A stretch of DNA of 34,315 nt from Holophagales bacterium UBA2201 (GTDB lineage: Bacteria; Acidobacteriota; Thermoanaerobaculia; UBA2201). The first letter of the stretch is position 1, and each line of letters begins with the position of its first letter. Of this stretch, positions 3,223-10,022 are shown in pieces. The stretch covers positions 47,030 through 81,344 of the forward strand of contig DCUZ01000019.1 in NCBI GenBank assembly GCA_002327305.1. Direction: 5' to 3'. The notes beneath the pieces are model-generated. The model was given only the letters and a program-made list of their open reading frames with translations, was not told where the DNA came from and searched no databases. Both the position numbers and the translations under genes were made by a program.

Positions 3223-3420
3223 CCCGGCAATATCCTCCCGCTCATCACGACTCAGGGTTCTCCCCAGGGAAGAATCTTCCGGTGAGCCGCTCTCTCTGCG
3301 CCGGGGCAAGGTATAATAATCCCATGCCCCGAACAGGCCGACCAAGGAAGCGAATCAACCGTCCGGCTTCATTTTTTCTTAACATTGGCGGGTTATCATC
3401 ATAGCGTCCCGACCTCAGCC

Positions 3421-5001
3421 ATGAAGAACCGGACCGCCTCCCTCAGCGCACCGCGACCCCCGACGAAGGCCCCCTTCCCCCTGAGGGCCGCCTGCGTGGA
3501 CATGGGCTCCAACGCCATCCGCTTCTTCGCCGCCGAGTTCGGCTCCCCCACCCAATCCACCGTCCTCGACGATGAACGCCTCCCCGTGCGCCTGGGGGCC
3601 GGCGTTTTCCTCTCCGGCCGCCTCGATGCGGCGGCGATGGAGGAGGCCCTGGCGTCGCTGGCGGGCCTCCCCGCGCGCCTTCAGGCCTTGAAGATCGATC
3701 TGTTCCGGATGGTGGCCACCAGCGCGGTGCGGGAAGCCGTCAATGGAAAGGCCTTCCTGGAGCGGGTGGAGAGGACGACGGGCCTGCGGGGCGAGACCAT
3801 CTCGGGCTACGAGGAGGCCCGCCTCATCCACCGCGCGGTGCGCGGGCGGGTCCCCATGGGGAGGCGGCCATGGCTGATGGTGGACGTGGGGGGCGGGAGC
3901 GTGGAGGTGACCCTCGCCGACACCGAGGGGCTGGTCTGGAGCGAATCGCACACCATGGGGGCCGTGCGCCTGTTGGAGGAGCTGGCCGGGGGAAGGCAGG
4001 AGCCGGGTCATCTCCGCCGCCTCCTGGAGGAATATGTAGCCACCCTCAACCTTCCCGCCGTCCTGGGGCGCCAGCGCCCCGCCGGCCTCATCGCCACCGG
4101 GGGCAACATCGACGCCCTGGCCCTCCTGGCGGGGGCCCTCCCGCCGAACGGCGGGCCCGGCCGGCTCCCAAGGGCCGACCTCCGAAAACTCATCGGAACC
4201 CTCTCGCGCCTCTCCCACGCCCGCCGGGTGCGCGACCTGGGCCTCCGCCCCGATCGGGCCGACGTCATCCTTCCGGCCGCCCTCGTCTACGACCGGGCCG
4301 CCGAGCTGGCGGGGGCCAGGGAAATCTGGGTTCCCCGCGCCGGGTTGAAGGAGGGGCTCCTCCTGGACCTGGTGGAGGACGCCGCCACCCACCGCGACCA
4401 TGTTGCGCGGCAGGACCGGCAGACCCGGGCGGGGGCCCTGGCGCTGGGGCGGCGGTACCGCTTCGACGAAGCCCACGCGGAGCAGGTCGCGTCCCTGGCG
4501 CTTTCGCTGTTCGACCAGCTGCGGCCCCTTCACGGCCTCGGAGAAACGGACCGCCGGCTCCTGACGGCCGCGGCGCTCCTGCACGACATCGGCAGTCACG
4601 TCTCCTACCGGAAACACCACAAGCACTCGCTCTACCTCATCGCCCAGTCGGAGCTCCCCGGATTCTCGGCGGAGCAGATGCTCCTCACGGCCAATATCGC
4701 GCGCTACCACCGCAAGGCGGAGCCCGGCCCGACCCATCCCGATTTCGCGGACCTGCCCCGCGGGGACCAGCGTCGGGTGCGGAAGCTCGCGGCCCTCCTG
4801 AGGGTGGCCGACGCCCTCGACCGCGAGCACCTCCAGGCCGTCCGGGGGATCAGGGCGCGGGGCGCGGGGCGCACGGTGCGCCTCCGCGTCGACGGGACGG
4901 GCGACCGGGTGCTGGAGCGGTGGGCCCTGCGGCGCAAGGCGGGGCTCTTCGAGCGGACGTACGGCCGGGAACTCATCCTCACCACAGGGGGAAAACCATG
5001 A
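3421..5001 (+). CDS. ppx: Ppx/GppA family exopolyphosphatase / pppGpp phosphohydrolase with C-terminal HD domain
   Basis: VDMGSNAIRF is the ASKHA N-terminal motif; the HD region reads HDIGSHVSYRKHHKHS. ATG 3421 was chosen and the 5' end is uncertain. Confidence 0.85.
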   Translation: MKNRTASLSAPRPPTKAPFPLRAACVDMGSNAIRFFAAEFGSPTQSTVLDDERLPVRLGAGVFLSGRLDAAAMEEALASLAGLPARLQALKIDLFRMVATSAVREAVNGKAFLERVERTTGLRGETISGYEEARLIHRAVRGRVPMGRRPWLMVDVGGGSVEVTLADTEGLVWSESHTMGAVRLLEELAGGRQEPGHLRRLLEEYVATLNLPAVLGRQRPAGLIATGGNIDALALLAGALPPNGGPGRLPRADLRKLIGTLSRLSHARRVRDLGLRPDRADVILPAALVYDRAAELAGAREIWVPRAGLKEGLLLDLVEDAATHRDHVARQDRQTRAGALALGRRYRFDEAHAEQVASLALSLFDQLRPLHGLGETDRRLLTAAALLHDIGSHVSYRKHHKHSLYLIAQSELPGFSAEQMLLTANIARYHRKAEPGPTHPDFADLPRGDQRRVRKLAALLRVADALDREHLQAVRGIRARGAGRTVRLRVDGTGDRVLERWALRRKAGLFERTYGRELILTTGGKP

Positions 5002-5027
5002 TCCCAAGGGGAGAAACCATGATCCCG
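4986..5027 (+). repeat. 21-bp tandem duplication spanning the RBS and start codon of the downstream kinase gene
   Basis: gggggaaaaccatgatcccaa is followed directly by ggggagaaaccatgatcccgg. Confidence 0.8.
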
Positions 5028-5684
5028 GGAAAACTGATCGCTGTGGAGGGGCTCGACGGGTCGGGCAAATCCACGCAGATCCACCTGGTCCATCAGTGGC
5101 TCCAGGGGCTCCGGTGCGGGGTCTTCTTCACCGAGTGGAACTCCAGCGGCCTCGTCAAGGGGGCGACGCGGCGGGGGAAGAAGCAGCAGATCCTCACCCC
5201 CGTCACCTTTTCCCTCATCCACGCCACCGACTTCGCCGACCGGTACGAGCGGCAGATCCTCCCCATGCTCAAGGGGGGGCACATCGTCCTGTGCGATCGC
5301 TACATCTTCACCCCCTTCGGCCGCGACGAGGTGCGTGGCTGCGATCCGAAGTGGCTGCGCACCCTGTACGGGTTCGCCCGCGTCCCCGACATCACCCTCT
5401 ACTTCCGCCTCCCCCTGGCCGTCTCGCTGGGGCGCATCCTGGAGGGCCGCCCCAAGTTGAAGTATTTCGAGGCGGGGATGGACATGGGGCTCTCTCCCGA
5501 CATCATCGAGTCGTTCAAGATCTTTCAGGGGCGTATCATGGAGCGGTACGACCGGATGGCCAAGGAGTTCAAGTTCACCGTCATCGACGCCACGCGCCCC
5601 ATTCACGCGCAGCAGGAGCAGGTGCGGAGGATCATCGCCCAGCGGATCGACCTGGCGAAATACCATCAGAGGGGTCTCCAATGA
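4998..5684 (+). CDS. thymidylate kinase-like P-loop kinase, paralog 1
   Basis: Walker A VEGLDGSGKST and motif DRY (LCDRYIF). ATGA overlap with the ppx stop. An alternative start at 5019 is created by the tandem duplication. Confidence 0.75.
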   Translation: MIPRGETMIPGKLIAVEGLDGSGKSTQIHLVHQWLQGLRCGVFFTEWNSSGLVKGATRRGKKQQILTPVTFSLIHATDFADRYERQILPMLKGGHIVLCDRYIFTPFGRDEVRGCDPKWLRTLYGFARVPDITLYFRLPLAVSLGRILEGRPKLKYFEAGMDMGLSPDIIESFKIFQGRIMERYDRMAKEFKFTVIDATRPIHAQQEQVRRIIAQRIDLAKYHQRGLQ

Positions 5685-6388
5685 GGGCCAAGCGCTGCTA
5701 CCTCAAGCCCCTTCCGGGCGTGGTCCCCGCCAAACTGCCGGGCCTCCTTCTCGTCATCGAGGGCCCGGACTCGTCGGGGCGCTCCACCCACATCGGCCTG
5801 CTGGCGCAGTGGCTGGAGGAGCGGGGCCACGCCGTGGCCCAGGCGGGGCTGAAGCGCTCCGAACTGGTGGGGCTGGAGCTGGAGCAGGCCAAGGCGGGGA
5901 ACGTCCTTTCGCCCCGTACCATGTCGCTCTTCTACGCCACCGATTTCTACGACCAGTTGGAGAACCGCATCGTCCCCGCGCTCAGGGCCGGCACCGTGGT
6001 CCTGGCCGACCGGTACTTCTTCACCCTCATGGCGCGCGACATCGTCCGCGGCGGCGACCGCTCCTGGCTGGAGTCGCTCTACGGGATGGCCATCGTCCCC
6101 GACGCCGTCTATTCGTTCATCGTCTCCTCCCGCACCCTGGTCCAGCGAACCCTCCACTCCCACGCCCTCATGGACTACTGGGAGTCGGGGATGGACCTGG
6201 GCCTCTCGCGCGACTGGTTCGACTCCTTCCTGGCCTACCAGCGGCGGATGCGGGTGGAGTTCCACCGGATGAAGGAAAAGTACGGGTTCGAAGAGATCAA
6301 CGCCAACCGCTCCATCCGCGCTATCCAGGCCGACCTGCGAGCCCGGGTCCAGACCGTTCTGGACACCCGGCTTGCAGGGATGAAGTAG
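5681..6388 (+). CDS. thymidylate kinase-like P-loop kinase, paralog 2, with a Lys-to-Arg Walker A
   Basis: IEGPDSSGRST, ADRYFF. Colinear similarity to paralog 1 (ATDF.D, VRGGD..WL..LYG, SGMDLGLS). ATGA overlap with paralog 1. Confidence 0.75.
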   Translation: MRAKRCYLKPLPGVVPAKLPGLLLVIEGPDSSGRSTHIGLLAQWLEERGHAVAQAGLKRSELVGLELEQAKAGNVLSPRTMSLFYATDFYDQLENRIVPALRAGTVVLADRYFFTLMARDIVRGGDRSWLESLYGMAIVPDAVYSFIVSSRTLVQRTLHSHALMDYWESGMDLGLSRDWFDSFLAYQRRMRVEFHRMKEKYGFEEINANRSIRAIQADLRARVQTVLDTRLAGMK

Positions 6389-7912: not shown

Positions 7913-7941
7913 TTGACACTGATTGTTTATTAGCATACAAT
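7913..7941 (+). promoter_or_regulatory. sigma70-like promoter for marR (TTGACA-N17-TACAAT) within an AT-rich operator-like region
   Basis: ccTTGACActgattgtttattagcaTACAAT. Confidence 0.45.
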
Positions 7942-7964
7942 ATACATATGAAAGGACGAGCGCC

Positions 7965-8456
7965 ATGGGATTGAAGGACGAGCTGGGGCTTCCCCACCCC
8001 GTCGCCACGCTGGCCCACGAGGCCATGCTCAACATCTTCGTCACCGCCGAGGCCCTCGGCAAGGAGGCGGACCGGGTCCTCCAGCCGCACGGCCTCACCA
8101 AGGCCCAGTTCGACATCCTCATGCTGCTGGAACACCAGACGGCCGACGGCGGGGCCGACCAGAGCACCCTCGGCCGGATGCTGGTGGTGAACCGCTCCAA
8201 TGTCACGGGCCTGATCGACCGGATGGAGCGGGACGGGCTGGTGAAGAGGATGGCCGATCCGGCCGACCGGCGCGTCAACCGGGTCAGGATGACTCCCAAG
8301 GGGATGAAGGTCCTCCGCGCCGCCGAGCAGGCCTATGTCGCGAGGACGCGCGAGGTGGTCGCCGCCCTCCGCGCCGCCGAGCAGGAGGCCCTCTGCCGGA
8401 CCCTGGAGCGGGTGCGGGCCTCCCTGCGCAAAAACCCTAATCCAAAGAAGGCCTAA
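7965..8456 (+). CDS. MarR family transcriptional regulator
   Basis: Winged-helix MarR signature (LTKAQFDILMLLE...RSNVTGLIDRMERDGLVKR). My hand count and the ORF-track frame disagree by 1 nt at the start. Confidence 0.85.
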   Translation: MGLKDELGLPHPVATLAHEAMLNIFVTAEALGKEADRVLQPHGLTKAQFDILMLLEHQTADGGADQSTLGRMLVVNRSNVTGLIDRMERDGLVKRMADPADRRVNRVRMTPKGMKVLRAAEQAYVARTREVVAALRAAEQEALCRTLERVRASLRKNPNPKKA

Positions 8457-8532
8457 ATGATCACCCGCAAGAATCCCCTGGATTTTTTTGCATTATATGG
8501 TTCACTAGTATACTGTATATGTACACTCTATC

Positions 8533-8625
8533 TGCTTCCTGTTCCTTGTTCCTCGTTCCTCGTTCTTCGTTCCTCGTTCTTCTGCCTTCCTTCTTCATCC
8601 TTCCTCCTTCTACCTTCTTACTTTA
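8533..8625 (+). repeat. pyrimidine-rich tandem heptamer array (about 12 units; cgttcct / cgttctt / ccttctt) in the leader of the radical SAM gene
   Basis: Strict 7-nt periodicity. It is preceded by AT-rich palindromes (agtatact at 8505-8525). Confidence 0.75.
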
Positions 8626-8642
8626 TCTCACGGAGGCCCCCC

Positions 8643-10022
8643 ATGAACATCCTGCTGATCGCCCCCGCCAGCGGCCCATGGCGCGGCGTGGGCCGCCGCC
8701 GTCTCTTCGGGGGACGGACCTTCCGCTTCTCCATGCTCTCGCTCCTCTCCGTCGCCGCCGAGACGCCCCCCGGAACCACCATCCGCATCGTGGACGAACA
8801 GATCGAAGAGGTGCCCACCAGCGGACGCTTCGACCTGGTGGGGATCACCTCCATGACGGCCGCGGCGCCCCGCGCCTATGCTTTGGCGGACCGTTTCCGC
8901 GCCGCGGGGGTCCCCGTCGTGTTGGGGGGGATGCACCCCACCTTCATGCCGGAGGAGGCCCTGGCGTACGCCGACGCGGTGTGCGCCGGCGAGGCCGAAG
9001 GGGTCTGGCCCGCCATCGTGGAGGACGCCCGGGCCGGCCGCCTCGGAGGCGTGTACCGCGCTCCCGCGCCGGCCGACCTTTTCCTCCTCAAGCCGGTCCC
9101 GCGCGCCCTGTTGCGCTCCCGGCATTATGCCACCGTCCAGGCGGTCCAGGCCACCCGGGGGTGCCCGCACCAATGCGCCTTCTGTTCCGTCTCCGCCTTC
9201 CATGAGGGGCTGTTCCGCACGCGCCCCATGGAGCAGGTGATCGCCGAGATCCGCTCCCTGCCCGGAAGGTTTTTCATTTTCACGGACGATTCCCTCGCGG
9301 CCGAGCCCGACTACGCCAAAGCGCTATTTGCGGCCCTGGCCCCGCTGAATAAGCGGTGGATGACCCAGGCCACCCTCGGGATCGCTGACGACGGAAAGTT
9401 GCTGGACCTGGCGGAGCGCGCCGGGTGCGTGGCGGTCTTCACGGGGTTGGAAACCTTCAGCGCTGAAAACCTCGAGGGGGTCGGCAAAGGGTTCAACAAG
9501 GCGGAGGAATACCGGGATCGGATCGCCCGCCTGCACGCCCATGGCATGGGCGTCGAGGCGGGCATCGTCTTCGGGTTCGACCACGACCGGCCGGAGGTCT
9601 TCCGCAACACCCTGGCGATGCTGGACGCATTACGCATCGACATGGCCCAGATCTCCATCCTCACCCCCCTGCCCGGAACGCCGTTCTTTAAGGCCATGCG
9701 CGGCCGCATCCTGGACGGCGACTGGTCCCATTACGACTACCATCACGCCGTTTTCCAGCCGGCGGGGATGTCCCCTGAGGAACTGAAGGCCGGACACGAC
9801 TGGATCACGCGCGCATTCTACTCCCCGCGACGCATCGCCCGGCGCCTGGGGTGGGCGGCGACGCGCAGGCACGCCGCCCGGGTCCTCCCCTTCGCCGCGG
9901 CCATCAATCTTGCCTATAATAGACGGGTGGCGAATTGGAATATCCGGGGATGGGACCCCGCCGGCGAACCCCCCGGCTTCACCCTTCACCACAAGCCGCT
10001 GGCCAAAACGGCCGGCGCCTGA
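8643..10022 (+). CDS. B12-binding domain-containing radical SAM protein
   Basis: N-terminal B12-binding fold, CPHQCAFC radical SAM cysteine triad, RBS ACGGAGG. Confidence 0.85.
   Translation: MNILLIAPASGPWRGVGRRRLFGGRTFRFSMLSLLSVAAETPPGTTIRIVDEQIEEVPTSGRFDLVGITSMTAAAPRAYALADRFRAAGVPVVLGGMHPTFMPEEALAYADAVCAGEAEGVWPAIVEDARAGRLGGVYRAPAPADLFLLKPVPRALLRSRHYATVQAVQATRGCPHQCAFCSVSAFHEGLFRTRPMEQVIAEIRSLPGRFFIFTDDSLAAEPDYAKALFAALAPLNKRWMTQATLGIADDGKLLDLAERAGCVAVFTGLETFSAENLEGVGKGFNKAEEYRDRIARLHAHGMGVEAGIVFGFDHDRPEVFRNTLAMLDALRIDMAQISILTPLPGTPFFKAMRGRILDGDWSHYDYHHAVFQPAGMSPEELKAGHDWITRAFYSPRRIARRLGWAATRRHAARVLPFAAAINLAYNRRVANWNIRGWDPAGEPPGFTLHHKPLAKTAGA

Follow-up and report, generated by a model that had tools for sequence, protein, structure and literature searches.

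What are two adjacent thymidylate-kinase-like genes, one of them with an arginine in place of the Walker A lysine, doing directly behind an exopolyphosphatase gene? The question is raised by a 34,315-nucleotide stretch of the Holophagales bacterium UBA2201 genome (assembly GCA_002327305.1, contig DCUZ01000019.1, positions 47,030 to 81,344; "the window" below means this whole stretch), in which the two genes, here called p1 and p2, occupy positions 4998–6388 and follow ppx. We judge, with a probability of about 80%, that the locus is a bacterial polyphosphate (polyP) operon of the PPK3 kind, comprising ppx, the catalytic subunit gene cPPK3 (p1), the partner subunit gene rPPK3 (p2), a small conserved gene and a CHAD-domain gene. 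This kind of system has already been published, and the pair in the window is a new bacterial member of it, predicted from sequence.

PPK3 was defined in Sulfolobus acidocaldarius (Höfmann et al., J Biol Chem 2026, PMC12995831; preprint bioRxiv 10.1101/2024.08.28.610084), where the operon order is sixA-ppx-saci_2019-saci_2020-CHAD. Saci_2019 (cPPK3) makes polyP from ATP and forms ATP from ADP and polyP about 50-fold faster, and Saci_2020 (rPPK3) is inactive itself and raises the activity about 10-fold in an alpha2beta2 complex; dTMP is phosphorylated by neither, the true thymidylate kinase (Tmk) of that organism being Saci_0893. The same study found the PPK3 branch of the tree to consist mostly of bacterial dTMP kinase (dTMPK) paralogs beside polyP genes, gave its occurrence as "a few taxonomically scattered bacteria", and reported that the bacterial carriers encode a canonical dTMPK at another place in their genomes. 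It attributed the inactivity of the r subunit to loss of the arginine of the DRX motif, and it reported PPK1 and PPK2 to be absent from the majority of PPK3 genomes, as a trend and not as a strict criterion (PMC12995831).

Assignment of p1 and p2

Both open reading frames (ORFs) carry the P-loop kinase motifs that an earlier note, made from this DNA alone, had described as a Tmk signature. p1 has the Walker A motif EGLDGSGKST (nt 5046–5075), EWNSS, DRYER, DRY (5295–5303) and a LID of the form R..RPKLKY, and p2 has Walker A EGPDSSGRST (nt 5759–5788) and DRY (6008–6016); both exceed the cut-off of 27 bits for Pfam PF02223 (Thymidylate_kin), with 65 and 48 bits, respectively. The two proteins are closer than the "only loosely related" pair of that note, being 40% identical over 210 ungapped residues (E = 2e-51) and mutual nearest paralogs.

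The best solved relative of both is Sulfurisphaera tokodaii STK_15430 (2plr/5h70), at E = 1.2e-60 for p1 and 6e-30 for p2, with canonical Tmks at about 1e-9 to 1e-11 (best canonical Tmk for p1 1e-11). The AlphaFold2 (AF2) model of p2 (pLDDT 87.7, pTM 0.86) likewise has 5h70 as its closest fold in the PDB (TM 0.79–0.91). Hidden Markov models (HMMs) built from bacterial c-type and r-type sequences place p1 with the former (c-HMM 416.8 bits versus r-HMM 197.6) and p2 with the latter (r-HMM 410.3 bits versus c-HMM 200.2). The characterised archaeal subunits score in the same sense, Saci_2019 with 258 bits against the c-HMM versus 174 against the r-HMM and Saci_2020 with 130 against the r-HMM versus 87 against the c-HMM, and E. 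coli Tmk reaches 42 and 30 bits with the c-HMM and the r-HMM. In a neighbour-joining (NJ) tree the c clade, including p1, has a bootstrap value of 100%, and the r clade, including p2 and taken without Saci_2020, one of 95%.

Individual residues agree with this division. K24, D100-R101-Y102, R146, R151 and K155 (numbering of the 228-aa form) are all present in p1, and the c family has the Walker A lysine in 79/80 sequences and the DRX arginine in 80/80. At the positions of p1 R58, R82, R85 and K155, which would line the polyP cleft, at least 90% of c sequences carry a basic residue, as do Saci_2019 and STK_15430; the r counterparts are E/D, Q, N and D, of which Saci_2020 has the same Q, N and D, and p2 has E68, Q92, N95, H161 and D165 at the cleft and LID basic positions. 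This cleft comparison is made at the level of sequence. The order of the genes is constant as well: r has c directly upstream in 80/80 related loci (these and all other neighbourhood counts and related-locus figures are from the best 80 of at least 571 confirmed loci, see below). What the sequences show directly is homology, the assignment of the subunits, the patterns of residues, the coupling of the genes and their conservation, and by these comparisons p1 is a cPPK3 and p2 an rPPK3-type subunit.

Could the two nevertheless phosphorylate dTMP? E. coli Tmk, in a sequence with one residue different from 4tmk, served as the reference for an alignment of 80 c-type and 81 r-type sequences. In that enzyme F74 is the thymine-stacking residue and R78 the O4-binding one. 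At the F74 position c has His and r has Tyr, the R78 position is Phe in both, the TREPGG of Tmk is replaced by [ST]EWNS in c and xGLKR in r, and in both families Y108 is deleted and Q109 has become Arg. Of the outcome that the earlier note had named as speaking against its reading, the first part, two canonical Tmks with their thymidine-binding residues kept, is not what we find: neither p1 nor p2 keeps them. Both also fall below the cut-off of 83.25 bits of TIGR00041, the NCBIfam dTMP-kinase equivalog (74.5 bits for p1 and 54.3 for p2), although this cut-off alone is no clean separator of the families, because Saci_2019, with no dTMPK activity, passes it at 105.8 bits. Because the dTMP-binding residues are replaced in both proteins and the equivalog scores are too low, p1 and p2 are, on sequence criteria, not thymidylate kinases. 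Membership of the PPK2 family was also ruled out, since the profile PF03976 matched neither p1 nor p2 at E <= 0.1; neither Pfam nor NCBIfam (June 2026) contained a PPK3 model.

The operon and its distribution

The genes of the locus, and the neighbour that bears on its interpretation, are as follows (window coordinates):

3385..5001, + strand: ppx, exopolyphosphatase (Ppx/GppA with HD-type domain III); Pfam PF02541 143.8 bits, PF21447, PF01966
4998..5684, + strand: p1, predicted cPPK3-type catalytic subunit, 228 aa (221 aa from start 5019)
5681..6388, + strand: p2, rPPK3-type subunit, presumed non-catalytic, 235 aa
6400..6813, + strand: conserved small gene, family unknown, 137 aa
6856..7854, + strand: CHAD-domain gene (polyP-granule-associated family), last in the putative operon, 332 aa; Pfam PF05235 170.5 bits
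10735..12327, - strand: two-domain PPK2 (polyphosphate:AMP phosphotransferase, class II); Pfam PF03976 459.8 bits in two stretches

Successive genes overlap by ATGA both at ppx/p1 (ppx stop 4999–5001, p1 ATG 4998) and at p1/p2 (p1 stop 5682–5684, p2 ATG 5681), which bears out the coupling of the pair to ppx that had been proposed earlier. The ppx product scores 197 bits with TIGR03706, under that model's cut-off. Its longest ORF opens with TTG at 3385, and the ATG at 3421 gives 526 aa; the latter is likely the start because relatives have 499–525 aa and fit it better. At the ppx/p1 junction, positions 4985–5026 form a 21-nt imperfect tandem duplication (18/21 matching) that spans the Shine-Dalgarno and start region and has no counterpart in the closest relative, locus L004. 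The duplication provides a second in-frame ATG for p1 at 5019, besides that at 4998, and 5019 is the start used in the database gene calls (221 aa, P0121). A tblastn search of the window found no third Tmk-like gene, and the window holds no SixA gene.

The survey covered one genome per GTDB species with two r-type peptide patterns, and yielded at least 599 stretches, at least 571 of them confirmed. r-type genes are thus present in at least 571 species-representative genomes of at least 10 phyla, among them Acidobacteriota, Gemmatimonadota, Spirochaetota, NC10, Eisenbacteria, Myxococcota, Planctomycetota, Thermoplasmatota and others; a metagenome-assembled genome (MAG) labelled Halobacteriales is also among the confirmed carriers. 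The best 80 loci include Acidobacteriota, Gemmatimonadota, Spirochaetota, Eisenbacteria, NC10, Polyangiaceae, Omnitrophota, Brocadiia and Thermoplasmatota, and the nearest relative among the matches listed is an uncultured Holophagales MAG (r 90% and c 95% identity). Directly upstream of c lies ppx in 58/75 loci, and a CHAD gene is found within 4 kb downstream of r in 31/59.

The small gene begins 12 nt past the p2 stop and has the Shine-Dalgarno sequence GGAGGA, and its product has a basic low-complexity N-terminus and about four predicted helices. Its homologs have an invariant C-terminal motif, LK[VL]KPxKGRxKD[LF], and stand right after r in 56/76 loci, including Thermoplasmatota MAGs; the gene is absent from the Sulfolobus and Nitrososphaera operons. 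Profile searches of Pfam, NCBIfam, PADLOC and the PDB sequences returned no relatives of the small protein, only helical-bias noise, and the AF2 model made from the single sequence has four helices and low confidence (pLDDT 61). An accessory role in PPK3 operons of the bacterial type is probable for it.

Many loci of the Acidobacteriota type (L013, L018, L021, L026, L036, L048, L049 and L072) have an operon that extends past the small gene, about 1.1–3.5 kb downstream of r. There a metallophosphoesterase of about 242 aa, recognised by motif alone (SDIHAN...GNVERK...CGHSH), is followed by a protein of about 510–547 aa whose C-terminal half is of the CHAD type and whose N-terminal half is, at a guess, CYTH-like. 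The window differs from these in having a plain 332-aa CHAD gene and no phosphoesterase.

The PPK2 gene scores 694.5 bits with TIGR03708, above the cut-off of 547.65, and lies 4 kb from the PPK3 pair, as a neighbour outside the operon. PPK2 genes are present in 7/80 loci, and the nearest relative (L004/L009) and a Polyangiaceae MAG (L033) likewise have one adjacent. Between the CHAD and PPK2 genes, a MarR-family regulator gene and a B12-binding radical SAM gene occupy 7923–10022 (+ strand); L004/L009 have only about 0.27 kb at the same place, and homologs of these two genes are absent there. A strong sigma-70-like promoter, TTGACA-17-TACAAT, follows the CHAD gene at 7913–7941.

The Walker A arginine and the role of p2

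The reading GPDSSGRST, with Arg for Lys, was given in the earlier note, and it holds. Arg34 of p2 is encoded by CGC at 5780–5782, two substitutions away from any Lys codon; the 120 closest database homologs of p2 all have G-R-[ST]-[ST], the r-type genes taken from other genomes have the Walker A arginine in 81/81 cases, and six different Arg codons are used for it (82 loci). A sequencing error or recent mutation is ruled out by the CGC codon together with the six codons across 82 loci. Pairs of this kind do recur beside ppx, as the counts for the arginine (81/81) and for adjacent ppx (58/75) indicate, and the Walker A arginine is, as far as these sequences show the clade, its usual hallmark. 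The main texts of the two published versions (PMC12995831 and bioRxiv 10.1101/2024.08.28.610084) make no mention of it.

A search of 1.84 billion cluster representatives, which was exhaustive and free of pattern bias, returned c-type proteins with G-K-[ST]-T plus EWNSS and r-type proteins with G-R-[ST]-T, a minority of the latter having G-C-[ST]-T or other replacements; some distant r-type proteins have Cys, His or Thr at the Walker A Lys position. Cys (G-C-[ST]-T) is found in P0400, P0411, P0415, P0417, P0421, P0467, P0487, P0489 and P0498, and such Cys-type distant p2 relatives are assigned by their P-loop motif alone. In the two-domain proteins P0409 and P0483 the N-terminal P-loop is degenerate and the C-terminal one reads G-R.

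The pocket around the arginine is strongly conserved. E27, G28, D30, G33, R34, D110-R111-Y112 and R119 are present in 81/81 r-type sequences, R156 and E168 each in 80/81 and T36 in 76/81, the mean identity of these sequences to p2 being 66%; the position of R123 is basic in at least 90% of the c family and of the r family. The DRX arginine is kept (as D-R-Y) in p2, in the Nitrososphaera r subunit and in 81/81 r-type sequences, and only Saci_2020 has D-G-Y. The published cause of r inactivity thus fits Saci_2020 and not the p2 clade. That p2 is inactive on account of its Lys-to-Arg change is something we infer, because the r subunit that was tested, Saci_2020, keeps the Walker A lysine and is disabled differently.

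By homology to SaPPK3, as the S. acidocaldarius enzyme is called, p1 would bind ATP or ADP at its intact P-loop, DRY and LID, would have a cleft lined by basic residues in place of the dTMP pocket, and would pass phosphate in either direction between the nucleotide and a polyP chain end, so that ATP would be formed from ADP and polyP at low energy charge and polyP would be made at high ATP/ADP. p2, which has the same fold and lacks the Walker A lysine, the basic residues of the cleft and two of those in the LID, would be non-catalytic and form the core of a hetero-oligomer that activates p1 (alpha2beta2 in Sulfolobus). PPX would hydrolyse polyP, the CHAD protein and possibly the small protein too would bind it, and the nearby polyphosphate:AMP phosphotransferase (PAP) would give ADP from AMP, which suggests a complete polyP-driven route from AMP through ADP to ATP. 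In this scheme, enzyme activity, the inactivity of p2, the stoichiometry and what the small protein and PAP do are predictions.

The earlier note had taken p2 for a regulatory or heterodimeric partner and the module for a polyP-linked nucleotide kinase, and the comparison with PPK3 supports this interpretation, with qualifications. Its link to polyP through ppx agrees with the position of the Sulfolobus homologs in a ppx/CHAD operon, and a regulatory partner accords with the rPPK3 assignment and the precedent of Saci_2020, although the characterised complex is a heterotetramer and not a dimer, and the silence of p2 is itself only predicted. A nucleotide kinase fits in so far as the favoured PPK3 reaction is ADP + polyP to ATP; for the dTMP or nucleoside monophosphates that the note had in mind there is no sign of use.

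Several points weigh against a PPK3 operon with a non-catalytic p2. The enzymology of PPK3 is that of SaPPK3 only, and bacterial members are known from genes alone. Saci_2020 forms a long branch and joins the r clade in only 45% of NJ bootstraps; because this makes its placement in the tree ambiguous, the HMM scores and three r-specific residues were used instead. The two r subunits are, moreover, altered in different places, Saci_2020 reading EGIMSSGKTT (Lys kept, P-loop Asp changed to Met) and D-G-Y and p2 reading EGPDSSGRST and D-R-Y. p2 and its clade keep D30, T36, DRY, R119, R123, R156 and E168, and from such a set some catalytic or ligand-binding role is conceivable. The PPK2-family enzyme at 4 kb, which as a neighbour also counts in favour of the reading, departs from the reported absence of PPK1 and PPK2 in most PPK3 genomes. 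Finally, a 460-aa c-r fusion among the cluster representatives (P0361, with a G-H P-loop in its r half), itself a point in favour, could be a frameshift artefact at an ATGA overlap.

In a rival explanation p2 is no dead scaffold; it would be either an active enzyme with an arginine P-loop, using another phosphate acceptor or priming polyP, or an allosteric sensor of nucleotide or polyP, which could set the direction of the reaction by energy charge. The near-invariance of the pocket across 81 sequences that average 66% identity to p2, the maintenance of Arg34 through six synonymous codons and the inapplicability of the DRX explanation to the p2 clade all favour such a role. In P-loop NTPases, however, the Walker A lysine is essential for phosphoryl transfer, and Lys-to-Arg mutants usually bind nucleotide without turnover. 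The equivalents of the LID residues R144/K148 are H161/D165 in p2 and those of the cleft basic residues are E68/Q92/N95, the Cys, His or Thr of some r-type proteins argues against a specific catalytic role for Arg, and Saci_2020 is inactive, so that we regard an active or sensing p2 as unlikely.

An ordinary tandem duplication of tmk, with ppx adjacent by coincidence, would account for the passing of the PF02223 cut-off by both proteins and for the names in use (JGI and NCBI label all c-type and r-type homologs "dTMP kinase", and STK_15430 was deposited as such). It is contradicted by the TIGR00041 scores and by the dTMP site, where the thymine-stacking Phe gives way to His or Tyr and the O4-binding Arg to Phe, with TREPGG replaced and the equivalents of Y108/Q109 gone; on these two grounds canonical Tmk duplication was ruled out. 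Furthermore, neither Saci_2019 nor Saci_2020 shows dTMP kinase activity, the earlier assay of STK_15430 followed ADP formation only, and the pair is kept with ppx and CHAD across phyla, all of which makes this explanation very improbable. Still further from credibility is a place for the pair in an anti-phage or toxin-type nucleotide-depletion system. What speaks for it is a set of weak matches, centred on the P-loop, to the PADLOC candidate PDC-M51B (24.8 and 16.8 bits); no further PADLOC model matched, the neighbours are polyP metabolism genes and the same operon occurs in chromosomal contexts across phyla. With matches so weak and P-loop-centred, a defence role was rejected.

The PPK3 operon thus remains our preferred reading. 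Public databases name these genes "dTMP kinase", and the new reading changes what is predicted for polyP metabolism in Holophagales and in at least 571 species-level genomes, a distribution far wider than the "few bacteria" of PMC12995831. The analysis adds three points to the published main text: r is commonly of the Arg type, a small gene is conserved with the pair, and the distribution is this much wider. The sole characterised r subunit is atypical, the common type keeping the DRX arginine and having a Walker A arginine. As a tentative and rather doubtful extension, the r subunit of most PPK3 systems (bacteria, Nitrososphaera and Thermoplasmatota) may serve as a conserved module for ligand binding, its P-loop of the Arg type and its DRY and arginines intact, which would sense ATP/ADP or polyP and set polyP storage against spending, and the small KPxKGRxKD protein may be a fourth dedicated component of the operon. 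If a sensor role of r were true, the explanation by DRX arginine loss would be a peculiarity of Sulfolobaceae. The putative AMP to ADP to ATP route would be relevant to energy buffering, enhanced biological phosphorus removal and ATP-regeneration biocatalysis.

Comparison with known systems

SaPPK3 is the closest characterised system. Like the window it has two adjacent paralogs of the dTMPK fold downstream of ppx, with genes that overlap and CHAD in the same operon. Identity between p1 and Saci_2019 is 50%, with EWNSS, DRYE[RK], DRY and a basic LID in common, and p2 shares the r-specific motif D-Q-x-E-N and the LID Asp with Saci_2020. Apart from the P-loop and DRX differences of the r subunits given above, the Sulfolobus operon has a SixA gene that the window lacks, and the window has the extra conserved 137-aa gene between r and CHAD and a PPK2-family enzyme near the pair. 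The hosts also differ, one being a thermoacidophilic archaeon and the other a mesophile-type high-GC Holophagales bacterium.

STK_15430 (ST1543) of S. tokodaii (2plr, 4nzy, 4rzx and 5h70), deposited as "dTMP kinase", is a homolog of Saci_2019. It is the best match of both p1 and p2 in sequence and structure, and has in common with them an insertion after the LID (E-A-G-x-D...) that is missing from canonical Tmk. It represents the catalytic subunit crystallised alone, and neither an r subunit nor the complex has a known structure.

The r subunits of Nitrososphaera (L008:5684-6403) and of Thermoplasmatota MAGs have the hallmark of p2, with EGPDASGRST, D-R-Y and 50–51% identity, and are set in a sixA-ppx-c-r-CHAD operon; their hosts are archaea, and in the Nitrososphaera locus r is not followed by the small gene.

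The "PPK3" of Ruegeria pomeroyi (Nahalka and Patoprsty 2009) is placed among PPK2 entries in the enzyme table of PMC13318637. It belongs to the PPK2 family, has only the name in common with the dTMPK-derived PPK3 and has no relation to it. The shared name can mislead searches.

Canonical Tmk (TIGR00041; E. coli, 4tmk) shares with p1 and p2 the fold, the P-loop, DRX, the LID architecture and the nucleotide-donor site. p1 and p2 differ from Tmk in their replaced dTMP site, an insertion of about 11 residues behind the LID and a score below the equivalog cut-off; canonical Tmk is, in addition, a homodimer, whereas PPK3 is a hetero-oligomer.

The two-domain class II PPK2 enzymes (PAP; for example P. 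aeruginosa PA3455 and A. johnsonii PAP) offer a parallel in design, as they too combine an inactive P-loop-kinase module with an active one and have an equilibrium towards polyP-dependent nucleotide phosphorylation. They belong to another family (PF03976), have their domains fused and use AMP as acceptor, whereas PPK3 is encoded by separate genes and uses ADP.

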